Positions 6,820 to 63,830 of a stretch of DNA of 64,000 nt are shown here, one piece after another. The stretch's first letter is position 1. Every line of letters starts with the position of its first letter. The translations under genes were made by a program, and so were the position numbers. The stretch lies in assembly GCF_901765095.1 (NCBI RefSeq), contig NC_044044.1:26760132-26824131 (forward strand), in the 5' to 3' direction. The DNA comes from Microcaecilia unicolor. Its lineage: Eukaryota. Below the pieces are notes generated by a model. The model saw nothing but the letters and a program-made list of their open reading frames with translations, was not told the origin of the DNA and did no database searches.

Positions 6820-7700
6820 ACATAAGTATTGCCACACTGGGACAGACCAAAGGTCCATCAAACCCAGCAGTTTCCCAACAGTGGCCAATCCAGGTCACAA
6901 ATACCTGGCAAGATCATAGAAAAGCTCAATACATTTTATGATGCTTATCCTAGAAATAAGCAGTGGATTTTCCCAAGTCCATCCTAATAATGGCTTATGA
7001 CCAGAGGTGTAGCTAGGTGGGGTGCAGCTGCTCCCCCAAATGGATCTTGACTAAAATGGTGCCTATGTGGATCAGCCCTCCAGCTTCACACTGATGCCTT
7101 TTTTAACAAAAGGTCTGCTCCCCCTGACATCAAAACCTGGCTACGCTTCTGCTTATGACTCTTCTTTTAGGAAATGCTCCATACCTTTTTTAAACCCTGC
7201 TAAGCTAACTGCTTTTACCACATTCTCTGGCAACGAATTCCAGAGTTTTATTTCCGATCTGAGGAAGAAGGGCAACCTTCGAAAGCTAATCAAGAAATGT
7301 ATTAAGTTATGTCCAATAAAAAAGGTATCATCTTATTTTCTTTTCCATGTTTTATTTTGTTTGATTTCTATTGATAACCTTAAGAGTGGACTAACACGGC
7401 TACCACACTCCTCTACTTGTTGAGTGAAGAAATACTTGCTCTGATTTGTTTTAAATTTACTACTTTGTAGCTTCTTTGCATGCCCCCTAGTCCTAGTATT
7501 TTTGGAAAGAGTAAACAAACGATTCACATCTACCCGTTCCACTCCACTCATTATTTTATAGACCTCTATCATATCTCCCCTCAGCTGTCTCTTCTCCAAG
7601 CTGAAGAGCCCTAGCCGCTTCAGCCTTTCCTCATAGGGAAGTCGTCCCATCCCCTGAGTCTTCAAGATAAAGGAGAAGGCAATGCCCCTCTCTCCGGTCC
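6820..7700 (-). mobile_element. CR1-like LINE 3' fragment (encodes the RT C-terminal tail [37 protein letters not shown]...RLFTLSKNTRTRGHAKKLQSSKFKTN)
   Basis: The minus-strand ORF 7333-7665 matches the conserved ORF2 C-terminus of vertebrate CR1-family LINEs; homologous copies lie at 10240-10850 and 37840-38400. Confidence 0.7.
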
Positions 7701-10239: not shown

Positions 10240-10870
10240 AACTCGACTCGACACAGCAAAGATATAGTGGAATTGGAAAAGGTGCAGCGAAGGGCGACTA
10301 AAATGACAGCGGGGATGGGACGACTTCCCTATGAAGAAAGACTAAGGAGGCTAGGGCTTTTCAGCTTGGAGAAGAGACGGCTGAGGGGAGACATGATAGA
10401 GGTATATAAATAATGAGTGGAGTGGAACAGGTGGATGTGAAGCGTCTGTTCACGCTTTCCAAAAATACTAGGACTAGGGGGCATGCGATGAAACTACAGT
10501 GTAGTAAATTTAAAACAAATCGGAGAAAATGTTTCTTCACCCAACGCATAATTAAACTCTGGAATTCGTTGCCGGAGAACGTGGTGAAAGGCGGTTAGCT
10601 TGGCAGAGTTTAAAAAGGGGTTAGACGGTTTCCTAAAGGACAAGTCCATAAACCGCTACTAAATGGACTTGGGAAAAATCCACAATTCCGGAATAACATG
10701 TATAGAATGTTTGTACGTTTGGGAAGCTCGCCAGGTGCCCTTGGCCTGGATTGGCCGCTGTCGTGGACAGGATGCTGGGCTCGATGGACCCTTGGTCTTT
10801 TCCCAGTGTGGCATTACTTATGTACTTATGTACAGCAGCCGTCCATCCAGTCTGCCCAGCAAGGTGTAAC
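10240..10870 (+). mobile_element. CR1-like LINE 3' fragment (plus orientation)
   Basis: Encodes [37 protein letters not shown] and, via ORF 10413-10598, VEQVDVKRLFTLSKNTRTRGHAMKLQCSKFKTNRRKCFFTQRIIKLWNSLPENVVKG; the same family as 6820-7700. Confidence 0.7.
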
Positions 10871-11289: not shown

Positions 11290-12080
11290 ATGTCCTCTAC
11301 TTTGAAGTTGTAAAAATCCAGTAAGAACCTTTCCCTGTCCATGGAGGGCTCACAATCTAAAGTTTGTACCTGAGGTAATGGAGGGTTAAGTGACTTGCCC
11401 AAGATCACAAGGAGCAGCAGAGGGATTGGAAACTGGCCACCTCCATTCAAATCCCGCCGCTGCTCCTTGTGATCTTGGGCAAGTCACTTAACCCTCCATT
11501 GCCTTAGGTACAAACTTAGATTGTGAGCCCTCCTGGGACAGAGAAATATCCAGAGTACCTGAATGTAACTCACCTTGAGCTACTACTGAAAAAGGTGTGA
11601 GCAAAATCTAAAATAAATAAGATTCTGGAATCTTAAAGAGTGACAAGATTCCATCTAGAATCTCAAAGAGTAGTGACATTCCATGTAGAACCCCAAAGAA
11701 TAGCAAGATTCCGGAGTGGAGGAGTGGCCTAGTGGTTAGAGCACTGGTCAGTTCAAATCCCACTGCTGCTCCTTGTGATCTTGGGCAAGTCACTTAACCC
11801 TCCATTGCCTCAGGTACAAACTTAGATTGTGAGCTCTCCTGGGTCAGAGAAATATCCAGAGTACCTGAATGTAACTCACCTTGAGCAAAGGTGTGAGCAA
11901 AATCTAAAATAAATAAGATTCTGGAATCTTAAAGAGTGACAAGATTCCATCTAGAATCTCAAAGAGTAGTGACATTCCATGTAGAACCCCAAAGAATAGC
12001 AAGATTCCGGAGTGGAGGAGTGGCCTAGTGGTTAGAGCACTGGTCAGTTCAAATCCCACTGCTGCTCCTTGCAGGTACAA
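11290..12080. mobile_element. SINE-rich block: an inverted pair of SINE bodies (11290-11540) followed by a tandem duplication of about 300 bp (11590-11890 and 11890-12080), each unit carrying satellite-like tail repeats plus a SINE head
   Basis: ggagggttaagtgacttgcccaagatcacaaggagcagc (minus orientation) abuts ctgctccttgtgatcttgggcaagtcacttaaccctcc (plus orientation). The unit gcaaaatctaaaataaataagattctggaatcttaaagag...ggagtggcctagtggttagagcactggtcagttcaaatccc is repeated. Confidence 0.75.
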
Positions 12081-17599: not shown

Positions 17600-17825
17600 G
17601 TCTGACTTTAGATGGTTTGCCCTAGTGGTTAGGGTGGTGGACTTTGGTCCTGAGGAACTGAGTTCAATTCCCACTTCAGGCACAGGCAGGTCCTTGTAAC
17701 TCTGGGCAAGTCACTTAACCCTCCATTGCCCCAGGTACAAATAAGTACCTGTATACAATATGTAAGCCGCATTTTGTCCATTTCTGAAAAAGCAAAACAT
17801 CTTTTTTTTTTTTTTTTTTGAAAAT
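17600..17825 (+). mobile_element. tRNA-derived SINE copy with a poly-T tail
   Basis: ccctagtggttagggtggtggactttggtcctgaggaactgagttcaattcccacttcagg...gggcaagtcacttaaccctccattgccccaggtacaaataagtacctgtatacaatatgtaagccgcatt followed by T(22). Confidence 0.75.
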
Positions 17826-19239: not shown

Positions 19240-20510
19240 ACCCCAAGTCTAACAAATCAACTCGTACAACTCCTTAGGCTCAAACAAATAATATTTTTTT
19301 AAAATTTTCTCTTAATGCAATTTTAAAACAATTCTACACAAAAAAGTTGTGTATATCAAAATGTGCTCAGTCCGTGCCTGGTGCAACCATTATATCCCCA
19401 GGGAGAATATGTGGTCATCATGTCACAGTTGGAAAAGCATCACTGCACATTCAATGTTCCGCCTCCTTAAATGTATGTACATACACCCAGACCAGATATA
19501 AGGCCTTCACCATATATGAGATAGTATAATAAATTTAAATTAGCACATTTTTGACAAAACATTGCCCAACCTTCTTAGACCCTACTAGCTCACTCCTGCA
19601 CTAAATATATGAAGGTACATGCATACTCACTGATATAACTATCCCCACAAACAAAACAACCAAATCTGTCCAAAAAAATGCACAGCAAATATTATTATAA
19701 TCACTTCCCATAACATAGTAACATAGTAGATGACGGCAGAAAAAGACCGGCATGGTCCATCCAGTCTGCCCAACAAGGTAAACTCACATGTGCAACTTTT
19801 TGTGTATACCTTACCTTGATTTGTACCTGTCCTTTTCAGGGCACAGACCGTGTAAGTCTGCCCAGCACTATCCCTGTCTCCCAACCACCAGTCCCGCCTC
19901 CCACCACCGGCTCTGGCACAGACCGTATAAGTCTGCCCAGCACTATCCCCGCCTCCCACCACCGGCTCTGGCACAGACCGTATAAGTCTGCCCAACACTA
20001 TCCCCGCCTCCCACCACCGGCTCTGCCACCCAATCTCGGCTAAGCTCCTTAGGATCCATTCCTTCTGAGCAGGATTCCTTTATGCTTAAGGATATCTCGT
20101 GCTCTTGTTGGTGCTCAAAACATACTCATACATTCATCCATGCTTTCTCTCAATTTCAGTACTTTGTTCCCTTTAACTCTGGCCGAGTTTCACACATCTT
20201 CATCAGAAAGGGAAACTATAAACAAAGAAATTCAGTAGGGAGATAGACCCTATCAAATCAATTGTTAACCTCTTTAAAGGGTACTTACTCATAACAAAAC
20301 CATTATAATCCTATAAGGGTCAACTGTGACATGATGGCCACATATTCTCCCTGGGGATATAATGGTTGCACCAGGCACGGACTGAGCACATTTTGATATA
20401 CAAAAATTTTTTGTGTAGAATTGTTTTAAAATTGCATTAAGAGAAAATTTAAAAAAAAATTATTTGTGTGAGCCTAAGGAGTTGTACGAGTTGATCTCTC
20501 ACTTCTTGCC
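19240..20510. mobile_element. Element flanked by roughly 200-bp terminal inverted repeats (19241-19437 and 20321-20507), possible DNA-transposon or foldback remnant
   Basis: The right arm is the reverse complement of the left arm (..aaatcaactcgtacaactccttaggctcaaacaaataat...gtgtatatcaaaatgtgctcagtccgtgcctggtgcaaccattatatccccagggagaatatgtggtcatcatgtcacagttg). The internal region carries an unrelated interspersed repeat. Confidence 0.65.
19840..20035. repeat. Roughly 60-bp tandem triplication (ggcacagaccgtataagtctgcccagcactatccccgcctcccaccaccggctct) inside an interspersed element copy
   Basis: Three near-identical direct copies at 19850-20030. Confidence 0.75.
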
Positions 20511-21399
20511 TGTTTCAGTTTCATCTCAGTGGGAAGGAAAGCTAGTGTGGTCTGTGGTTCTGCAGCAGGAAGGGCTGGAGTGTAAATTTTAAGGGGCTTC
20601 AACATTAGCTTCAGAACTTTTAGTACAAGAACAGTGCTGGGCAGACTTCTACGGTCTATGCCCTGATCGTGACTGAATAGATAGGGATGGGCTGGAGTGT
20701 GAATTTTAAGGGGCTTCAACGTTAGCTCCAGAAGTTAGTACAAGAACAGTACTGGGCAGGCTTGTATGGTCTGTGCCCTGAGATAGGCAAGGACAAATTA
20801 AACTCAGGTATACATATAAAGTATCACGTACCATGTAAAATGAGTTTATCTTGTTGGGCAGACTAGATGGACCATTCAGGTCTTTATCTGCCATCATCTA
20901 CTATGTTACTATGTAAGGGTGCTTGAACAGAGACTGGAAGGGCCTGAGTGGAGCAGGTGAAGGGGAGGAGGGAGCCCGGGGGGGGGGGGGGGGAGCCCAG
21001 ATTTTCCATTTCTGTATGCTTCTGACTGATAAGAACCAAGAGAAGGCAGCAGAAAGAGAAATCCCTGACATAAACCCACTCATTCCACCATCTCCCATCT
21101 CGCTTAACAAATGCACACACTTCATCCCTGTCCCCCTCCCCGCTTCCAAGATTAACTCCCTCCACCCTGCACCCCCATCCTGTTCTACCTAAAGTATTTC
21201 TTTAGTCAACCCAATAAAGCTCGGACAGCTAATGAAATCATGGGGGTGGGGGCGGGGGATGTAGTTTTGAAGATGATCCCTTCACACCTTTCCTGATGTC
21301 ATTAAGTGCTGTTGGAGGGGCTGCTGAGTTTGGAAGGAGGCAGAGAGCAGCTATTGTCTTTCATTTGCCCACCCCAGGTATATAAGGAGGGTGCAAAAC

Positions 21400-23300: not shown

Positions 23301-23319
23301 CAGTACCTCTGTGCCAAAC

Positions 23320-24300
23320 AGTGGAACAATAGCCTAGTGGTTAGTGCAGTGGACTTTGATCCTGGGGAACTGAGTTCGATTCCCACTGCAGCTCCTTGTG
23401 ACTCTGGGCAAGTCACTTAACCCTCCATTGCCCCTGGTACAAAATAAGTACCTGAATATATGTAAACCGCTTTGAATGTACTTGCAAAAACCACAGAAAG
23501 GCGGTGTATCAAGTCCCATTTCCCTATTTCAGATTCTACATGGATTGTTGCTAGTGGAGGAGGAGTCTAGTGGTTAGTGCTTTGGACTTTGATCCTGGGA
23601 AACTGGGTTCAATTTCCACTGCAGCTCCTTGTGACTCAGGGCAAGTACCTGAATATATGTAAACCGCTTTGAATGTAGCTGCAAAAACCTCAGAAAGGCA
23701 GTATATCAAGTCCCATTTCCCTTTCCCCCTTTCCCTTATGACATCACAATATCAGAAGTGAGCCGAGTATCGGGCAATCAAGCCATTGTGACATCACTGA
23801 TGAGGTTGGCTCTTATTGGTGGAATGAGTGGAGGAGTAGCCTAGTGGTTAGTGCACTGGACTTTGATCCTGGGTAACTGGGTTCAACTCCCACTGCAGCT
23901 CCTTGTGACTCTGGGCAAGTCACTTAACCCTCCATTGCCCCTGGTACAAAATAAGTACCTGAATATATGTAAACCGCTTTGAATGTAGTTGCAAAAAAAC
24001 TCAGGCAGTATATCAAGTCCCAATTCCCTTTCCCTATTTGAGATTCTATATGGAATGTTGCTAGTGGAAGAGTAGCCTAGTGCTTAGTGCAGCAGACCTT
24101 GATCCTAGGGAACTGGGTTCAATTCCCATTGCAGCTCCTTGTGACTCTGGGCAAGTCACTTAACCCTCCATTGCCCCCCCAGATACAAATAAGTACCTGT
24201 ATATACTATGTAAACCGCTTTGAATGTATTTTTTATTTTCGTTACATTTGTACCCCGCGCTTTCCCACTCATGGCAGGCTCAATGCGGCAGAAAGGCAGT
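23320..24300 (+). mobile_element. Cluster of four same-orientation tRNA-derived SINE copies (about 23325-23520, 23555-23720, 23820-24010, 24065-24300) immediately upstream of the SLC12A3-like start codon
   Basis: Each copy has a tRNA-like head (gcctagtggttagtgcagtggactttgatcctgg...gttcgattcccactgcagctcc) followed by gggcaagtcacttaaccctccattgcccc...gtaaaccgctttgaatgta and sometimes a tail of the cattgtgcagc type. Confidence 0.8.
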
Positions 24301-24402
24301 ATATCAAGTCCCATTTCCCTTTCCCCCTCATAACCTGTCTCTTCTCCATGTTTTTTTTCAGTTACTGTGAAGGAGGCAAGACCTCCCCCCCCCCCTCCCC
24401 CT

Positions 24403-41743
<17,341 letters not shown>

Positions 41744-43822: not shown

Positions 43823-44337
43823 TCACATGGCCATGTACAGCGTGATGGGACAGTGGTCGCTCCCCATGGCCTTGGAGCGAATTTTGTTGTCACAGAGCTT
43901 AGGAAGCAAGGCCTCAGAAAGCAGGAAGTAATCGAGCCTCCAGCCCACATTCTTTCCCCGAGCGTTCATCATGTAAGTCCAGAACGTGTAGGCGTAGGGG
44001 ACATCCGGGTACAGGTGGCGGAAGGTGTCAACGAACCCCTCCCCCAGCAGGGTGCCGAAACCCTCCCGCTCCTGCGGGGTGAATCCAGCTGTCTTCTTAT
44101 TCGTCTTGGGATTCTTCAGGTCGATCTCCTCGTGGGCCACATTGAGGTCTCCACAGAGGATAAGGGGCTTCCGCCCATCTAGACCCTTCAGGTAGGCCCG
44201 GAACGCTACATCCCACTTCTGACGATAGTCCAGCCGGACCAGGCCACGACTGGAGTTGGGCACGTAGGCCGCCACCAGGAAGTAGTCCTTGAATTCTGCT
44301 GTAATGACTCGCCCTTCTTTATCATGTTCCTCCACAC
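43823..44337 (-). CDS. APEX1: APEX1 terminal coding exon with stop ([16 protein letters not shown]...[13 protein letters not shown])
   Basis: Acceptor tctacag|GTGTGGAGG; ORF 43823-44368 holds the catalytic-core motifs. Confidence 0.92.
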
Positions 44338-46800
44338 CTGTAGAACAAGGGAGAAAAAAAAATAGCAAGCAGAAGATGAAAGGGCCTCATCCACAATGCA
44401 AACATTACCCCCCCCCCCCTTTCCTTACCAGCTCAACTCACAATTAAAAAGCTCACTACAGGATGGGTATCACAGGCTCTTTTCTCCTCAGACATATGAA
44501 CCCTGCTCCCTACGTCATAATCAACAGAAGGGGTGGGATCCTGAGTTAAGGGAGCAAGGGTGAAACCTGCTTCCTTCTTAAGGGATACATTTTCAGTCAT
44601 AGAAGAGAACAGACTTTCCAGCCCTTTTTGTTATTCCACATGTTCACCCCTAGCATTTTACTTCTCCAATTTCTACATGTGCAACTGTGGTTCCCCCCCC
44701 CACCACCACCACCACCACCACCACCAAGGAAGGTACGACTGAGTTAGGAATGTCTCACCAATGGCACACGTGTGGTCATCCTTTGTAGGTGCACCATGCT
44801 GCATGTGGGAAGTATGAGAGTCTGCATCTGCCTGTGAGCTATCAGAGTATGATATGGTCCAACCCCTGATCACGCGTGAAGGAGCGAAACATGGACCGTG
44901 AAATTGGCTCTTGTGATTTGGTGATTGTGCATCGCAGGTTCAAGAGTGTAATTTGAACAGTTTTCTTGAATTACTCATACATCCTGGAAGTGGGGGAATG
45001 TCGTGATATGACCTTGGAACGTTGGACTGATCATTTGTTTAGCAGCGGCTGAACTATTCAAGGTTACTACAGCTATGAACGTTATTGGAACTTGGATTCA
45101 GTGACGTGATTAATGGAGGTTACAAGATGGCCCAATAGTATTTATTTTGGGATTGTATGGTGTATTCTAAGCTGTATAGTGTGAGTGTGTGATGATTGTG
45201 AAGAATGTTGTGTTTGACAAGTTGGTACCATAGCATTCCCTGTTACTGGTTTTAGAGGTTTTTCTATATTGTTTCAAAGCATGCATAGTTGTTAATATAT
45301 CGTACCAATGCCGTAGGAGACATTGAGTGGCGAGTCTTTGCAAAGCATGGCCACGCCGCTGTAGCCCTCCTTGTCATCCGAGCAGGCCCAGTACTTGTTG
45401 GGGTACTCCGCCATATCCTTGATCTCGCTAGGCAGGGCCTTCTCAGCACATTTTGTCTCCTGTAGGCACAGGATGTCTGGATCCTCCTGCCGCACCCACT
45501 GAAGGAAAAATAGAGGAAATATTTATTCACAGCAAGAAATAGGGACCAGGCAATTGATGCCTCACAGACAACAGCACAGGAGCTCCCTGTGGTCTCTCAA
45601 GTGCCCCACGGGGATGGGAGGAGGGTGGAAATTTAAAAGGCAACAGAGAAGCATTAATTCACCCATGGCTTCATTATCCCTACAAAGGAGCAGGTGCAAA
45701 AGGAAGCAATTAGAAAAGCTGGTACCCCTCCCCCATCTAAGAGGCAAACAGCAACACCATGAATCTGGTACCCTGGGAGCAAGTCTCGGGGCTGGATTGC
45801 AGGGGAGGGGGGGGGATGAGAGGCATGCAGTCGCTTGTACAGAAGGGGCAGGGTGGGGGTGGGCGGTTAATACTCACATCCAGGCCCTTCTTCTTCACCC
45901 AGGCTCGCAGCCCATCCACGTTCCAGGAGGTGATCTTGAGGTTGTACTTCTTCCCTGCAGAAGAGGTCAGCTTTTCAGGGGGATCCTCGTATGTGGGGGG
46001 CGCCTCAGGCTCCTTCGCGGCTTTGGCCCCCCCTCCCTTCTTGCTCTTTTTCGCTACCTGTTCTGAAGAGAAGCAATAGGGAAAGAGAAATAAAAACACA
46101 CTACTGTTCAAATGTCTTCCCTGGTTATCTTCTCGCTGCTCCTTGCCTCATAAGGCTGTCATCAGGGAGACTGAACGTGACCCATCTCTGCTTATCAGGA
46201 AGCCACTGTGCAACTAGTAAATCCTGGCCCCGATTCTCAAGGTACCCTACAAATATGCATGAGATAGATTTACATACATTGCATGCAAATCTCTCATACA
46301 TATTCGTTAAGAGTATCCCAAACCTCTGACCTGTCTGCAGCATTGAGGGCTGTCATTGAGTACCACTGCTCAAGGTGTTACCATGACTGTAACACAGAAT
46401 TTATTGATTTTGTAAATTTCTAGCCCACAACAAACAAGTAAATAAACAGACTGCTATGCATCAGAGAACAAAAGTGCTGGAATTAAGGCACAGGGAAGCA
46501 GGCAGTTTGTTCCATAAAAGAGGCCCTTCCTTTAGAACACTGGTTCTCAGCCCAATTCATGGGACACATCCAGCCAGTCTGTTTTCAGGATATCCACAAT
46601 GAACATGCTGCATGAGACAGATCTGCATACATTCGATGATGTACATGCAAATCTATCCCATACATAATCATTGTGGCCAGAGCAGTTTGAAATTCACTGC
46701 TCTGGAAGGGTGATGAGGCTCAATTACCATTTTCATCCTGCTCCTGGCACTCAACATTCACAGTCTCCTCCTCAAGCGCCTTCTTCCCACGTTTTGGCAT
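43823..46800 (-). CDS. APEX1: Gene span of AP endonuclease 1 (APEX1/APE1/Ref-1), 4 coding exons, 321-aa model
   Basis: Exon peptides match APE1: MPKRGKK start, ...[35 protein letters not shown]...[12 protein letters not shown], the C-terminal catalytic core ...[34 protein letters not shown]...[22 protein letters not shown]...SDHCPITLY. All junctions are GT-AG and the CDS of 966 nt is a multiple of three. Confidence 0.92.
45306..45498 (-). CDS. APEX1: APEX1 exon ([64 protein letters not shown])
   Basis: Acceptor ttccttcag|TGGGTG and donor GGCATTG|gtacga. Confidence 0.9.
45878..46062 (-). CDS. APEX1: APEX1 exon ([62 protein letters not shown])
   Basis: Acceptor tctcttcag|AACAGG and donor CTGGAT|gtgagt. 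Confidence 0.9.
46728..46800 (-). CDS. APEX1: APEX1 first coding exon ([24 protein letters not shown], phase-1 end)
   Basis: ATG at plus 46798-46800 (reverse complement) and donor AAAATG|gtaattgag. The upstream acceptor ttccttttccttcag near 46862 suggests a non-coding exon 1 in the CpG island. Confidence 0.85.
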
Positions 46801-47912
46801 CCTCCAAATGGAGCTCGAGCGGAGCCAGCTACGGAAAACAGCAACACGTAGAATTTCTCCTGAAGGAAAAGGAAATTCGGATAATGCTCTTGTACCATAA
46901 GAGATCCTAAGGCTCAAAGGAGCCGACACTGGTTGTGGCATAAAACAGAACTATCAGGGCAAGAGCTCCGTGTGCGGAGTTCCGGTTGCCTCTATAACCC
47001 TCTCCATTCCCTGGTCTTGCACACGGATTCCAAGGGACTGGCACATTTCATGGGAAGGGGCCACTGCATACAGCTAAATTTAAAAAAAAATGCATTTGGA
47101 TAAATGATATTAACCACCTACACATCGGAAACGCCAGCTGTTACTGCTGGGCACAGATCCTCTCATCAGGATCTGAAAGGGACTTCCAAGTGACCCAGAC
47201 TAATCAGTTAGAGGCAAGATAGGTGGTAGGCTCTGTGGACCACTGATCCATGAAAGCAGACCCTTTTATGATTTATTTGTTACATTTGTATCCCACATTT
47301 TCCCACCTATTTGCAGGCTCAATGTGGCTTACATAGTACCGTAAAGGCGTTTGCCATATATGATCAGAAAGGGCTGCCACATACTTTTTACATAACGATA
47401 ATAATAAATTCTGTATCCACAGTCAGAATCTAGAGGCTGGACTCTAAGGCCCACTGATCTGAGCCAGCCCTTCCCATAGATGCTTTTCCATGACCATGCA
47501 TTTTGTAGGATTGCATTTATATAGAGAGAAGGCGTGCAACTCCTCTGCAGGCGCTGGGACCAAAGAAGAGCCAGGACCGTGCCAGCAAAGCATGCACCTT
47601 GGAGCACGAGAGGGGCGCTCCCGGGCCCAGACAAAGGGGGTGGGGATTGGAGAACGCACCGGGACTACAGGCCGCTCGCTCTCAGAACGTTCCTGGGAAG
47701 GGAATCTTCTCCTCGCGCCACTCTCGTTCCAGGCCAGTCCTAGCCACGCCCCCTCGCTCGCAGACAGAGCCCCAGAAGCACGCCGCACGCGGCACATCAA
47801 CAAAGAGGAGCGGAAGCGGAAGGGGCTGGACCGGAAATGCGCGTGGGCCGGAAGCGGCCTGGTGGAGCTTGAAATCGGGATTTTTTTTTTTTTTGCCCCG
47901 CTTTTCGCCGTC
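46801..47912. promoter_or_regulatory. Bidirectional CpG-island promoter region shared by the divergent APEX1 (minus) and OSGEP (plus) genes
   Basis: Only about 1.1 kb separates the two start codons, which face outward. The 47560-47880 stretch has a high density of CpG dinucleotides (CG-rich, many CGs per 100 bp), GGAA/CCGGAAG ETS-like motifs, a CCAAT-like motif and no TATA box. The APEX1-OSGEP head-to-head pair is conserved in mammals. Confidence 0.7.
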
Positions 47913-56457
<8,545 letters not shown>

Positions 56458-59019
56458 TACTACACAAAGCAAAAGAACCAACCCTACATTTAAAATCGCA
56501 AAGAAAACATGTTTTTACTGTATGTATGTACGCGCGCAGATTGTATGACTCCTGAAGCAGTCATTTCCACGCCGAAACATGGCTCCGTGTCGAGACTTTT
56601 TACTGATGGTGCTCCAATAACTATTTTTGATCGCTACTTATCCTCTGGAGATCTGCTCTCCGACTTTGTGTGTTTTCTCTGCGATGAATACTATGCCAGC
56701 CTCACAATATTTAGATGTCTGTGTGCCAGATCTGAGCTTTTCCTATGGAAGAGAGACGCGTAGCTCGTAGAGCTGAATTTAATGACCTAGAACTGGAGCC
56801 AACATCAGTCGCGGGTAAAAAGCAGTGGCTATGTATAGAGTCTGAATACTAATTAAAAAACACATTGTATTGCATTCTCTAAGGGTTGTCTTGCTGTTCA
56901 GATTCTTTTTCCTTCCCCCCCCCCCCCCCCCCCATCCCCTGCTTTCGGGGTTGCTTCATTTTAGACTGTATATGTTGATGACATTCATAATCTTTGACAT
57001 ACAGAGAGCTTTAAATTCATTGCTAAAGCCAGAGAATTCATACGCTTGTTCACCCCCCCCCCCCCCTCAACCCCGTCGGCAGTACAATCCTGCATCTCTT
57101 CCTTGCCAGCCTGTGGGTTCAGCATCTCACCCCTGCAGCAACTCGAAGTTGAATCAGAGAGAGGGCTCCAGGCAGCCTAGGAGGGTCACTGCACTTCTAC
57201 GGCTCTATAGAAGACACTTTTAAAGGTACACAGTGAGGGGCGTGGGCATTGAGATGCTGAACCTGTGCGGTGGAAGGGAGGGAGAAAGAGAGGTACTGGC
57301 CCGGGGAGGGAGTATATTTGGTAGTCAATATGTCATCAGTGTGATACCCTTCTGAGGCTCTGCTGGAAATCTGTTCTTTTTAGTGGATGTGTGCTGTGCT
57401 CATGCTGTACCTGTGTTGGGGTGGGGGGGGGGGGGGGGAGCAGCACACTCCTTTGAATTACTCAAAATTCAGGACAGGGAGAAAAGCTCACCTAGAGCTT
57501 CCCAACTCTTACAATGAAGTGTATTAACTTGAAAAGGAAAAGAAGATATCCATTAACACCTGATCTGGTTTCTGCAGTTGATTTGGCGTCATGAAACAAA
57601 CATATTTTGAGTATTGCTGTCGGTTTTACACTTGGAAACATTCAGTTCCTGATCCCAAAATCTCACAGGGGATTGCTCTGACCCAAACCTTTAAATGAGA
57701 GTCTTGGGGGGGGGGGGGGGGGGGGAAGAAGAGTTTAGCAAATGGGGGAAAAAGGCCACCAATGCTGCTTCTTTTACAATTAAATTTATTTGCAGCTGTA
57801 TCACGGCTACCTTACACACATGGAGGGATTAAAAATATATCAGCAAATATACATCCAAATTAACAGGAAAATCATATAATCACAAAAAAGTTTAAAAAAA
57901 AAACAAAACTTGTTGCTCCAAAATAAAATAATCAACTATTTCTCTGCATTCTTATACAGGCCAGAGAAGCAAAAGAATATTTACATGTCAGTTCTTGATT
58001 GGTTGAATACACAGCTCTTATATACAGGGCAAGCGCTTTGATCCATTTTAAGTTAATTGATTTGGTTAGATTGTGCAGTTAGGCTACGGGGAGGAGGTCT
58101 GGAAGCCAAATGGAAATGGGTTCAGTGGCTGCAAGATGGGGCTGGACCCAGGGACTGACTGGCGGTTGCTGCTGGGAATACAGGTATGTAATGGCTGCCA
58201 ATCTGGGGCAGTGCAACGGCAGAAAAGCCCAAGAGAGGATCTGCCCGAGTAACCGGCCAGTACGACTGCTGCTTTCAAAAGGGGCAGAAGCGGGGAAACA
58301 CTTCTTAACTGCCTTCTAGAAAGAATCCGAGGTGAAAACGGTCTGAAATCGAGGGGGGGGGGGGGGGAGATAAGGTCCAGGTTTACAGCGAGAGGGAAGG
58401 ACCCTAACCACCTTCCTCAGTCACTGGGATCCCTGATGGCTGCTGTGCAAAAGACTTATATCCTGTGGTCCTGCCCATCAAGCTAGGATAGGAAAGACGC
58501 TTTTTTTCTGCCTAATGGCAGCCATGATACCGCAGCCAAAGCTGTTCATTTAGTCTGCCAGGAACTTCGGACAGCCTCTGACTGGTGCAAAAAGTGGGGC
58601 CACTTCCAGTGCTAATGAGCTGTAGCTGCGGATGTTTTTTGGGGTTTTTTTTTGGGGGGGGGGGGAGGGGAGGCAAAGCTGCTAATATAAAAACAGTCTT
58701 CTCATCCTGCTGCTCATTCCGAAGAGTGGACTGAGATATCTCCCACTGGTATAAGCAAATTCAAACTTTTAAAACCCCGGTTACATTAGTGTCGAGGGCT
58801 GCTGGGCATTGATCTGGGGTTTTACAATTCCTCTTCCATTTTATCAGTCTCTGCTGCTTACTGATCAATTATATAAAGCATAACGGTTGCATCCACACAA
58901 CCTCCTAAGTCTTACTTTTGGGACCGGGATCCCACTTGTGTCCGTTCACATTTATTTAAAACTAGAAAAAAATGCCCGTTTCTGAGCGCAATGAAATGGG
59001 CGCTGGCAAGGGGCCCCCT

Positions 59020-59255
59020 CCTTCCGAGCTACTTGCCTTGTTGGGGGTTGGCGTTCGCCTCGCGTTTTGGCCCTCCGAGTGTTATAGCTCCGCCCTCGAC
59101 GTCATGACGTTTTGACGCGAGGGCGGTGCAGACCCTCCCTCCGAGCTATTTGCGTTGTTCGGGGTTCGTGTTCGCCTCGTGTTTCGGCCCTCCGAGTGTT
59201 ATAGCTCCGCCCTCGACATTTTGACGCGAGGGCGGTGCAGACACTCCAGGGCACA
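59020..59255. repeat. Roughly 115-bp tandem duplication containing CRE-like palindromes (gccctcgacgtcatgacgttttgacgcgagggc), between the convergent OSGEP and PIP4P1 3' ends
   Basis: ccctccttccgagctacttgccttgttgggggttggcgttcgcctcgcgttttggccctccgagtgttatagctccgccctcgacgtcatgacgttttgacgcgagggcggtgcagac is repeated with minor changes. The upstream motif gcccgtttctgagcgcaatgaaatgggcgctggcaagg recurs at 63420-63460. Confidence 0.8.
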
Positions 59256-61044
59256 CCGGATATCTCGGGCGCCTCAACTTCTGTGGAGGCTTCAGAACGT
59301 TGGGGTTGCCTTTTATATAGAGAGAGAATTAGTGATTAATTTAATCATGGGCTCACAGCCTGTACCATTTCACTTGCTCACAGCTGCCACCCTGCCGTTG
59401 CACTGGACTATATTTCAGAAGTCTTGCGATATGAGTTTAAGAACCTTTTCTATCGTTGCTGCTTCTGGGACCTGCCTCCTACTCTCTCTGTTCCTGAGGG
59501 AGTCACATTAGCCACCGTAGCTCCAGGACTCAGTTAAAAACAAGGGTTTTTTTTTTTTTTTAATATGTCTTTTTCTCTGAATGCATGGGGACGATCTGAT
59601 TCTATGTCCCAAGTCTACTCCAACACCAGCAGTAAAACATCACAGCTGACGGGGCTGATTCCAAAATACAGTCACAGCTCAGAGATTCCACTGTCAACAA
59701 GGGGCCAGAGGAAAGAAAGGACTTTTGATTTTAAGTTCTTACTGCTGTGTTTTTATCACAGCGTCCCGCACTACCTCGTGCCTGAGTGCAGCCAGTCTTT
59801 ATCTGTTAGGACGCCCTGGTTTACGAACCCAAATTTCTTGCTGGTTCTCTCTCAGGACCTCCAAGTGAGGGGGAAGGTGGCTCCGGCATGCCAGAAAAAT
59901 AACCGATTATTATGCATTCTCATTCTGGATTTAGAGATCAAGCCAGAGGCCTGGCTGTTTCTTTCTTGCATGTGGGTTATTTTATTTTATTTTTTGTTTG
60001 TTTTCTGGGGATTCTCTAAACAAACATCACCTTATTTAAAAACAGTGAACAGGATGGACTGGTAAACCTTTCACTGCCTCTAGAGGGCAGCAGCAGCATT
60101 AAGCCATCCTACAGAGCAAAATCCATTGCGGAGGGTTTAAGTTATATCTGAAATACCTTATTTCTTACACACCTTACTAAGAGGGGCTAGATCCTGCCCT
60201 CTTCCACATTCAGCCAGCGATCAATGCCCTAAAACATCCAGCTTCCTCTGTAAACAATAAATATTCAGCCACATAAAATCCCAAGTCCACCCCGTCTTTC
60301 TTCCTTCCTTTCCCAGAGTGGGGCGCAGGACAGGTAGGAGAAACTGAACTCATGATACGCTCTGATTCTTCTGTTTCATGCTGTAGGCAGGCAGTGGGTT
60401 TGGGGTAGTGGATGGAATTGGCTGTGATTTTGTCTGTTAATCACCAAGGGCTGGGTTCTGACGGGGGGGGGGGGGGGGGGTGTGCAGGGAAGCTGTGGTT
60501 CTGCCTCTCCTTTCTCACTGAAAGGTGGGTTGCAGCGAAGGCTACTGGGGGCTCCAGGGAGACTGTAGGGTGCTGTGCTTTTGAGGTTCTCTTGCTCCCA
60601 CCTCACTGTAGGATGGTGGAGGAGGAATGGGATCAGAGGGCTTTGATTATCACATTGTCCTTATTTTTTTACTGGGACGCTGGCGCAGGTATGGAGTTCA
60701 GGAGAAGCTCTGGCCAAGAGACGACTGAGATTTTCTCATTCCTCCTTGAGAAACAGGTTCATGAGAAGCTCTGGAGGGGAACAGGATGCCGAGGTTCTCT
60801 TGCTCATTCCTTGCTGGAGGAGAGGTAGGCTCAGGGGAAGAACTGAAGGGGCGGGGGAGAGCGGCCTGTGATTCTGAGAGTCTCGTACGCCCTGAGGAAT
60901 GGGCTCAGGAGATGCTCTAGCTAGGGCCTTGTTCCTCACTACGACGCAGTGCAGGATGTGTGGGCTCAGGAGATGCTCTGGATTTGAAAAGTGCTGAGTT
61001 TCCGCCTTGTTCCTCACTGCAGTGTGCCAAGAAGAAGGGTGCAC

Positions 61045-61185: not shown

Positions 61186-62965
61186 CTATAACAGAAGCAA
61201 CATCAGCTTGTTACATGCAACCAAAAGCAGACTTAAGGTATCAGAACATGCAGTGACTGTCGCAGGATACGATGCGCATCACTAAGAAATGACACGACAA
61301 ATACCAGTAGTCAAAGAACACAGAGGGAATACCTCTACGCCAGCAGGAAAAAGTAGAGGCTGAACAAAGGCGAATCCAACACTGGAGATGTTATGAAGAA
61401 ATACTTTATCGATGCAGCTATAGAGGGACCCGACACGGCCCGTGTTGCGGCGAATCACACCGCCTACATCAGGGCTCAAATAAATAATTTGTCCTAAAGA
61501 ACTTATATTCAACTCTGCGTATATCAAATCAAGGAGCTGTGATCCATTCGAAATGATCAAAGGACATGCGCAAATAAACCACCGCTTGCAAACTCTGGGG
61601 GTCTGCTCGAATGGATCACTGCTCCTCGATTTGATATACGCAGAGTTGAATATAAGTTCTTTTGGACAAATTATTTATTTGAGCCCTGATGTAGGCGGTG
61701 TGATTCGCCGCAACACGGGCCGTGTCGGGTCCCTCTTTAGCTGCATCGATAAAGTATTTCTTCATAACATCTCCAGTGTTGGATTCGCCTTTGTTCAGCC
61801 TCTACTTTTTCCTGTTATGGCAATAGCAGTAACATACCATGGGCAGGACATCACTCAAACACAACATGGCTCGGAGCATAGGGATGAGGCATTGAGTAAC
61901 AACGTGAGCATCACATGCTTAACTGACTGACGGGTGCAATATAACCCACAGCCAGTCTCCTGTGGAGCCACTGTCGGCCCATTCTAGCCCTCACAACATT
62001 CCCACAACCATCACTGTGTTAAGAAAAACAATAACACTCTATCTATCCCACCTACAACACCCCCCCACACACACACACAGTGCTGCCTAATATCCAGCGC
62101 ACAGCTAAATTACCCCAGAGCACATGATATCTGCTACTGCTGGAAGCACCGAGCTTCAGTCTAACTACAAAGCAGCCCTGGAGGACAGAACTCGCTCCCT
62201 CCTCCCCCACCCCTTTAATATTTATGGTGCTTGTTAACCAAAATGCAGCACCTTCTCCCATTAATGGTCACTGCAGTGGGAAACAGAGCATGTCCTGAAT
62301 ACCCTCCTGCTTGCTCTGGTTCTCTGTGCTGTAGAAAGGGGAAAGGGTGCAGACCAGCAGGGGTTAAGGGAAAAGACACTTGAATACTTACTGCCAGACC
62401 AGCCGCGGCAATTGCACAGAATAATCCTAATAAAAAGTAACAGAGGCACTTTGTCCGCGGATATCGCCGTCCAATAGAGGAACTGAAAGCCACAAGGAAA
62501 ACAGCTAATCAGGAATTTTTCTCTTATGGGTCTGGTTCTGCTGTCTACAGGGCTCTTGCATCAAACTGGATGTCAGAGCTATAATCTACCATGGAAAAAC
62601 ACAGTACAGCTGTACCCTCCCCCACTCCGCCCCAGTCGAAGGAGCAAGAACCAGATCCAAGAATGGAACCCAAGTCTTCAACCGCTGCACCACTTCCAGC
62701 TCAAGCCAGAAGGGGAACCAACATCTAACTTCTGCAGCAGTCCCCAGTCTGAAGTGCAGGGGTTGGGATTGCAACCCATCGCTCCCAAACACTTCTCAGA
62801 AAGAGTTCCCCCCTCCCCCACATGCTAGGCTGCCAGGCCTCCCTCACAGAAGGAACAGCACCTAACACGAGAAAGATCCCCTCCACCATGCATGCCACAA
62901 AGTGTCACTTACACCTTCCTACAGTGAGGACAGCGGGCGAGGGTTCGGGCCGTGAACTCTGTCCA
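61045..62965 (-). CDS. PIP4P1: 3' part of the PIP4P1/TMEM55B gene (type 1 PtdIns-4,5-P2 4-phosphatase); last three coding exons, 5' exons outside the window
   Basis: Exon peptides [17 protein letters not shown](V), [30 protein letters not shown] and [46 protein letters not shown] match the TMEM55B C-terminal Cys motif and the two transmembrane segments. The gene lies tail to tail with OSGEP. Confidence 0.75.
61330..61810. repeat. Near-perfect long inverted repeat (arms about 215 bp, spacer about 45 bp) within a PIP4P1 intron; hairpin or foldback element
   Basis: 61335-61560 (cagcaggaaaaagtagaggctgaacaaaggcgaatccaacactggagatgttatgaag...ggagctgtgatccattcg) is the reverse complement of 61606-61806 (cgaatggatcactgctcc...ctccagtgttggattcgcctttgttcagcctctactttttcctg) with only a few mismatches. 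The ORFs 61282-61560(-) and 61553-61930(+) encode the same peptide because of this symmetry. Confidence 0.9.
62392..62482 (-). CDS. PIP4P1: PIP4P1 exon ([33 protein letters not shown]1)
   Basis: Acceptor ggctttcag|TTCC and donor GGCA|gtaagtatt; the phase completes Val with the previous exon. Confidence 0.75.
62913..62965 (-). CDS. PIP4P1: PIP4P1 exon ([17 protein letters not shown], phase-2 end)
   Basis: Acceptor cctgcatag|TGG and donor AAGGT|gtaagtgac. Confidence 0.7.
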
Positions 62966-63459: not shown

Positions 63460-63830
63460 CCTCGGAGTGTGTATGTTTGAGAGAGTAGAGTGTGTGTGAG
63501 AGAGAGAGAGTGAATTTGCGAGTGTGTGCCTGGGGTCCCTCCCTCCCACCCAGTTCCAGTGTCCCCCCTCCCTCCGAGTTCCAGGGTAGTCCCCCCCCCC
63601 TTTTTTTTTTTATTTTTTAGTTTTTGTACAGGTGGTGCATTCCCCTCCCCTCCTCCGAATTCCAGACTCCAATCCCAGACCCCCCTCCCTCTGAATTCCA
63701 GACCCCTCCCTCCCACTCTCCGAGTTCCAGACCCCACCTCCCTGCCTCCCTCCCTCCGATTTGCAGAGCCCACCTCCCTGCCTCTGATTTACAGAGCCCC
63801 CCCCCCCCCTTGGAGTGCCTGACCCCTGGA
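63460..63830. repeat. Low-complexity region with TG/GA dinucleotide runs followed by degenerate direct repeats of about 30-40 bp of the ccctccctccgagttccaga type
   Basis: gtgtgtgagagagagag; the repeated motifs cc(g/t)a(a/g)ttccagac.cc and ccctccctcc at 63540-63790. Confidence 0.7.

Follow-up and report, generated by a model that had tools for sequence, protein, structure and literature searches.

The last intron of PIP4P1 carries a 471-bp near-perfect palindrome (61344-61814), in which two flush 208-bp arms, complementary at 204 of 208 positions, enclose a spacer of 55 nt. We give about an even chance to the reading that this palindrome is a young, non-coding insertion of mobile-element type, either similar to a MITE or foldback element or composed of the two terminal repeats, now paired, of a larger element that has long inverted ends, and functionless in itself. 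It cannot be filed as a MITE, as the test for a target-site duplication (TSD) failed. Below, the window denotes the whole stretch of DNA that was analysed, 64 kb in length.

Geometry of the palindrome and its host intron

The long inverted repeat noticed at this site in the first-pass annotation was borne out by our repeat search (98% complementarity) and by a base-by-base comparison of the arms, which also revealed that complementarity breaks off sharply at the outer and at the inner end of each arm. The sizes given there were essentially right, with arms of 208 rather than about 215 bp and a spacer of 55 rather than about 45 bp. When RNAfold pairing was compared, the sequence outside the arm ends paired no better than random segment pairs taken from the window. 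By chance, the longest inverted repeat expected at such spacing in 64 kb is approximately 11 nt, and the palindrome was the single outstanding inverted repeat of the search. The outer terminus of the left arm reads 5'-CAGGAAAAAGTAGAGGCTGAAC. Within 61344-61814, Tandem Repeats Finder identified no tandem sub-repeats and self-BLAST gave the inverted match alone, while the spacer displayed no significant match to either flank, to the outer ends or to the rest of the window. Folding, which had been proposed as a check on the initial observation, yielded an extreme hairpin: the predicted RNA of the plus strand folds at -411.6 kcal/mol (z = -45) and that of the minus strand, which is the sense strand of the host gene, at -417 kcal/mol (z = -49), with a corresponding value of -268 kcal/mol (z = -46) for single-stranded DNA.

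The placement of the repeat inside a PIP4P1 intron, likewise claimed from the sequence at first pass, agrees with our tblastn searches, for which the human TMEM55B sequence served as the exon query. Minus-strand coding exons were located on both sides of the palindrome, the intron boundaries are GT/AG, and the joined C-terminus, used as a protein query, matched PF09788 (TMEM55) proteins alone. Read in the direction of the gene, 577 nt of intron separate the 5' splice site from the palindrome and 158 nt separate the palindrome from the 3' splice site; the palindrome takes up 39% of the intron. The positions of the exons, the intron and the parts of the palindrome are collected in the table.

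PIP4P1 is adjoined within the window by APEX1 and OSGEP. A Kelch-type gene, named from its ORF sequence and the gene order, occupies the place where KLHL33 sits at the human locus, and the gene order in the window is that of the human PIP4P1 locus at 14q11. The terminal exon of APEX1 displayed identities of 80% to turtle, 78% to frog, and 77% to both shark and human, the best of any being 81%; with these lineages at nearly the same distance, the source is taken to be a non-mammalian vertebrate, possibly a caecilian to judge from its repeat sequences. No close relative that could supply an orthologous intron was present in the protein libraries searched, where the best PIP4P1 match reached 66% and the best APEX1 match 81%.

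Table. Positions in the window of the palindrome, its host intron and the neighbouring PIP4P1 exons
Feature	Position	Strand	Length, content and basis
PIP4P1 terminal coding exon, with stop codon	61045-61185	minus	tblastn; sequence reading
PIP4P1 last intron, host of the palindrome	61186-62391	minus	1206 nt; tblastn, GT/AG boundaries
CpG-rich segment adjoining the left end of the palindrome	61250-61343		94 nt, 5 CpG
Left arm	61344-61551		208 nt; repeat search and base-by-base check
Spacer (hairpin loop), non-palindromic	61552-61606		55 nt; repeat search, base-by-base check, fold
Right arm, reverse complement of the left arm	61607-61814		208 nt; repeat search and base-by-base check
PIP4P1 penultimate coding exon	62392-62482	minus	tblastn and splice-site inspection
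PIP4P1 coding exon	62912-62965	minus	tblastn and splice-site inspection

CpG content, arm divergence and open reading frames

The composition of the palindrome is foreign to the surrounding intron, and it has not undergone CpG decay. Its 471 nt contain 23 CpG (observed/expected 0.98, GC 44.6%), compared with an observed/expected ratio of 0.31 for the whole window (1081 CpG) and of 0.21 for the 577 nt of intron to its right (7 CpG); at the flank rate, 23 or more CpG would be reached with P = 4e-8. Both arms contribute, the left with 10 CpG (observed/expected 1.00) and the right with 11 (observed/expected 1.08), and each on its own is enriched relative to the flank rate (P = 7e-5, the value for 11 or more CpG in the right arm at the rate of the adjoining intron). 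Despite its GC content, the palindrome falls in the top 1% of 471-nt windows, and equal scores were attained only by promoter-like CpG islands of the window. DNA long resident in such a methylated, CpG-depleted intron would be expected to have shed its CpG, which points to a recent arrival or, less likely, shielding from methylation. The edge in CpG density is sharp on the right (61814/61815) and not sharp on the left, where the adjacent segment at 61250-61343 has 5 CpG against 1.1-1.6 expected (P = 0.006-0.02) and is possibly, with some uncertainty, part of the same young block.

The arms have diverged by 1.9% (Jukes-Cantor 0.0195). Using neutral rates of 0.5-2e-9 per site per year and assuming that gene conversion was absent, we infer that the duplex arrived or was completed roughly 5-20 Myr ago. 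Four differences separate the arms: one is a CpG-to-CpA change, and the other three are T:T on the plus strand, that is, A-to-T three times over, a bias with P of about 0.001-0.01. Because these three leave the duplex unpaired on either strand (A:A or U:U, with no wobble), the arm differences appear to fit neutral drift, with no sign of selection for pairing. The initial suggestion of a very recent origin or active maintenance is thus upheld in its first half, by the 1.9% divergence and by a CpG ratio of about 1.0 against 0.2-0.3, and maintenance is not needed, as three of the four differences unpair the arms.

Two facing ORFs cross the palindrome, at 61282-61560 on the minus strand and 61553-61930 on the plus strand, and the peptide encoded by the arms is common to both, with three substitutions. 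This shared peptide, already pointed out in the first-pass annotation, is a trivial consequence of the symmetry of the arms. The ORFs of the palindrome reach at most 125 aa, and the 125-aa frame returned neither a match among 5.8 billion proteins nor an exact record, in libraries that hold few vertebrate proteins. A 49-aa frame had a sole match among 1.84 billion representatives (P0014, E = 3.9e-9), a 1321-aa tandem-repeat, low-complexity protein; as BLASTP gave no alignment, this match was set aside as an artefact of composition. Pfam, searched with the arm ORFs, returned RmuC alone (E = 0.067), which was taken as noise. With no protein or Pfam homologue found, the palindrome is judged from its sequence to be non-coding.

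Ends of the palindrome and competing origins

Flush arms of equal length are expected of a unit that was moved or copied as a whole. In common with MITEs, the palindrome has flush terminal inverted repeats and a small size (471 bp) without coding capacity; another hallmark of MITEs, a TSD of superfamily-specific length, is missing. The flanks read …TACGCCAG/CAGG…CCTG/TTATGGCA…, the slashes marking the two ends, and no exact TSD was found for lengths of 2-11 bp at offsets of ±12 nt from either end. Since a cut-and-paste insertion is flanked by a TSD, one would be expected to be intact at the age given above. A 7/8 match near the ends was rejected, as it required asymmetric offsets and is attributable to chance among 625 offset combinations (author's estimate). 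The motif CCTCTAC (61332, and again in the right arm at 61799) was considered both as a TSD and as microhomology; as a TSD it was rejected, because the insert would need to contain 16 nt of its own target in inverted form. The termini contain no recognisable motif beyond the CAGG…CCTG ends, and the 8-bp flanks differ from each other; hAT-type termini have only the first three bases, CAG, in common with these ends. The systematic search of both ends therefore agrees with the earlier impression by eye that neither a TSD nor a known terminal inverted repeat is visible.

With BLASTN at word size 9, the only match to the arm in the window was the partner arm, and the 22-nt terminus does not recur there with up to 3 mismatches. 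Neither a tRNA search nor Rfam identified a tRNA, 7SL or 5S head, and there is no tail; with the TSD also missing and no Rfam family matched, an inverted pair of SINEs or an RNA pseudogene was rejected as the source. A foldback or MITE-type transposon, one of the classes named at first pass, remains the best class for the palindrome, with the qualification that the TSD has now been tested and is absent and that, where a MITE would have many homogeneous genomic copies, the 64 kb hold no second one. Palindromic MITEs and foldback-type elements such as zebrafish Angel, human MADE1 and the long-TIR MITEs of Xenopus are likewise small, non-coding and formed almost wholly of one hairpin, lie in introns, and give dsRNA once transcribed; our palindrome differs from them in that it lacks a TSD and a recognisable superfamily terminus and occurs only once in the window. 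It differs from FB-type foldback elements in particular, whose terminal repeats consist of tandem sub-repeats of the kind that Tandem Repeats Finder did not detect here.

An origin in place, the main rival, which we hold to be possible at a clearly lower probability than the insertion, would dispense with transposition of the palindrome as such. One arm and the spacer (approximately 61250-61606) would then be pre-existing intronic DNA, young or unmethylated, and the second arm would have arisen on the spot, through a template switch to the opposite strand during replication or through fold-back synthesis as a double-strand break was repaired. The absence of a TSD and of any other arm copy in the window favours such a duplication, as does the CpG-rich block, which runs about 94 nt past the left arm and ends precisely where the right arm does, the asymmetry that would result from adding the right arm as a copy. 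The same 94 nt count against the insertion reading, as they are not predicted by a clean insertion of the palindrome alone (P about 0.01). Template switching is, moreover, a documented one-step route to perfect hairpins (PMC10710096), which resemble the palindrome in being a perfect inverted copy placed beside its source, at a single locus, without a TSD and in one step. However, the published copies are short, with stems of about 35 bp against 208 bp here (PMC10710096), so that the arm is some six times as long as their stems; its composition is foreign, and reading of the sequence revealed essentially no microhomology at either junction. The source segment would itself be unusual, with a CpG observed/expected ratio near 1, and a recent insertion is therefore needed in any case. 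The missing TSD would also be compatible with the paired inverted terminal repeats (ITRs) of a DIRS-type tyrosine-recombinase retrotransposon whose interior was lost, an origin that we regard as quite unlikely. In DIRS1-like elements the ITRs span 66-316 bp and integration produces no TSD (PMC3266345), which the 208-nt arms and the missing TSD fit, and in one caecilian 26-30% of the genome consists of DIRS elements, whose terminal repeats measure 61-343 bp (PMC8498967). Unlike the DIRS1-like elements (PMC3266345), the palindrome has no internal complementary region, its spacer matching neither the outer ends nor the flanks; it has no zone of "divergent ITR" or extension above chance, and protein and Pfam searches recovered no remnant of the reverse transcriptase, RNase H or tyrosine-recombinase genes. 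A deletion that spared both complete ITRs and left only 55 nt between them would also be a coincidence.

A functional hairpin locus in the PIP4P1 intron, acting as an endo-siRNA or miRNA-like precursor or as a regulator through ADAR or dsRNA and kept near-perfect by selection or gene conversion, is about as improbable in our estimate as the DIRS origin. Such a locus would be transcribed by default with the host intron, its fold is extreme, and plants and flies are known to have long hairpin RNA loci from which siRNAs arise (PMC8728187). The palindrome shares with the hairpin RNA loci of LIRBase a short-loop inverted repeat from which a host promoter would produce a long hairpin RNA, and differs from them in that its arms are under the 400-nt cut-off of that resource (PMC8728187). 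Against a functional role, no Rfam family was matched at threshold, whether the region was scanned permissively or the whole window at the gathering score; the best hit, MIR8007, reached 51 bits where 195 are required, and the sub-threshold hits as a whole (MIR8007, Yfr17, HrrF and snoR30) were dismissed as generic long-stem or chance matches. Animal miRNA precursors have a stem of approximately 35 bp (PMC10710096) and belong to a described family, whereas the palindrome has a 208-bp stem and no Rfam family, and vertebrates lack long miRNA hairpins according to PMC12553114. Three of the four arm differences are A:A or U:U rather than wobble pairs. The arms of a hairpin-RNA locus would derive from a target gene or be complementary to it; here no target can be named, as the arm is unmatched in the window and the two open frames match no protein in libraries with few vertebrate sequences, and the retained CpG is explained more simply by youth than by function. 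The reading as a miRNA or hairpin-RNA precursor, raised at first pass, has thus gained no positive support from the Rfam searches, the stem length or the search for target homology. Less probable still, and very unlikely to our minds, is either a maintained hairpin-RNA, endo-siRNA or dsRNA-sensor/ADAR module acting on PIP4P1, with gene conversion, possibly GC-biased, preserving both the arms and their CpGs, or a captured hairpin telomere of parvovirus-ITR type from a linear DNA virus. We consider least probable of all an artefact of assembly or sequencing, for instance a chimeric long read of the fold-back kind or a hairpin adapter that was overlooked, or else a contaminant from a vector, phage or bacterium. 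Palindromes are a known type of long-read artefact; this one, however, is short and internal, lies inside a correctly spliced gene and carries four substitutions between its arms, and its 55-nt spacer is unlike a SMRTbell adapter. Exact 23-25-mers found no match in metagenome, prokaryote-genome and viral collections, in which there is almost no vertebrate DNA, and BLASTN found none among plasmids and phages; these negative searches exclude contamination or an origin from a microbe or virus and do not touch on copy number in the host genome.

The predicted transcript and comparable structures

As transcription of the host gene passes through the palindrome, each PIP4P1 pre-mRNA would be expected to carry a near-perfect duplex of 208 bp, in which 205 of 208 positions pair on the sense strand when one G-U is counted. 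From established knowledge of such RNAs, this duplex would be expected to leave with the spliced-out intron, to be, while present, a long intronic dsRNA of the type that undergoes ADAR hyper-editing, and to yield at most low-level Dicer products. On the same general grounds, the 55-nt spacer would let so long a DNA palindrome persist without rapid deletion.

As it stands, the palindrome matters little, as long inverted repeats are extremely common in vertebrates and this one bears no functional sign. Across 208 vertebrate genomes, LIRBase lists 4.59 million long inverted repeats whose arms measure 400 nt or more; shorter arms were dropped there so as to leave out short inverted repeats along with potential MITEs and Alu elements (PMC8728187). 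The modest value of the palindrome is that it offers a clean, datable and very long (208-bp) near-perfect duplex within an intron of a housekeeping gene. Given expression of the host gene, the duplex could be a natural substrate for studying ADAR hyper-editing, dsRNA sensing and the stability of short-spacer palindromes in a non-mammalian vertebrate, and the absence of a TSD may make it a useful case for telling transposed palindromes from those made by repair.

At least one further tight hairpin, apparently single-copy, was located in the window at 31371-31634, with 116-nt arms of 92% complementarity. The 11-mer CCTCTACTTTT, common to the palindrome and to the flank of this second hairpin (31358), was ascribed to chance, since 51 of 200 shuffles reached the same alignment score. 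Several repeat-derived hairpins also occur in the window, and the presence of these other hairpins within the same 64 kb suggests that such structures are common in this genome.

Mismatches between the PIP4P1 hairpin arms

Comparison of the two arms of the PIP4P1 hairpin, the near-perfect inverted repeat in the last intron of that gene, revealed that three of the four arm mismatches are T:T oppositions when read on the plus strand, implying that an A-to-T change of the same type occurred three times. The remaining mismatch (61531/61627) corresponds to a CpG-to-CpA change. Such a bias among the mismatches was unexpected, with P about 0.001-0.01.

Positions of features in the window
Feature	Position	Strand	Detail
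T:T mismatches, PIP4P1 hairpin arms	61421/61737, 61495/61663, 61538/61620	+	
Second tight hairpin, arms	31371-31486 / 31519-31634		region to about 31680
APEX1	43826-46111	-	
OSGEP	47490-53544	+	located exons 47.5-53.5 kb
CpG-island-like peak	58700-59400		
Long ORF	24367-25932	+	521 aa
Multi-copy repeat family	54957-56318; also 40118-40525, 23317-24289, 17618-17737, 11628-12008		
SINE copies, inverted pairs	11360-11431 / 11446-11517 / 11752-11823		
Large inverted pair, repeat copies	19256-19877 vs 20321-20919		spacer about 0.9 kb
CR1-like LINE fragment	7333-7665	-	inverted partner 10311-10545
C/G-rich tandem repeats, dense block	63535-63830		periods 25, 28, 36, 65

A second hairpin

Another tight hairpin, rich in GC and CpG and present as a single copy within the window, pairs 116-nt arms at 92% complementarity around a 32-nt loop; after it comes a run of roughly 35 G residues. 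It displayed no sequence relation to the PIP4P1 hairpin, and the 11-mer CCTCTACTTTT (at 31358), common to both hairpin regions, was dismissed as a chance match.

Gene order and unassigned features

The order Kelch-type (KLHL33-like) gene, APEX1, OSGEP, PIP4P1 in the window matches that of the human 14q11 neighbourhood. APEX1 and OSGEP lie head-to-head, with a CpG-rich region (about 47.5 kb) at the centre of the arrangement. A separate CpG-island-like peak, with an observed/expected ratio of about 1.0 and 31-36 CpG per 471 nt, sits downstream of where PIP4P1 ends (3' end) and rightward of the located OSGEP exons. No gene was recognised at this peak, which may represent an orphan promoter. The long ORF runs without interruption and looks like a single large exon of some gene; S, T, P and C are abundant in it, and TPTC and SFTSD(G) motifs recur.

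Other repeats and inverted pairs

The multi-copy repeat family includes tandem units of about 30 nt each (TTCTACATGGAATGTTGCTA…), has perfect palindromes in its interior (e.g. 55860-55947) and gives rise to long spurious ORFs. Additional hairpin-capable structures are formed by the inverted SINE pairs, whose copies combine a tRNA-like head with a MIR-like core (…GTGACTTGCCCAAGATCACAAGGAGCAGC…). The large inverted pair includes 138 nt at 97%, with flanking segments at 75-94%, and the CR1-like LINE fragment likewise has an inverted partner. The dense C/G-rich block, hosted by an upstream PIP4P1 intron, also carries long G and A homopolymer runs.
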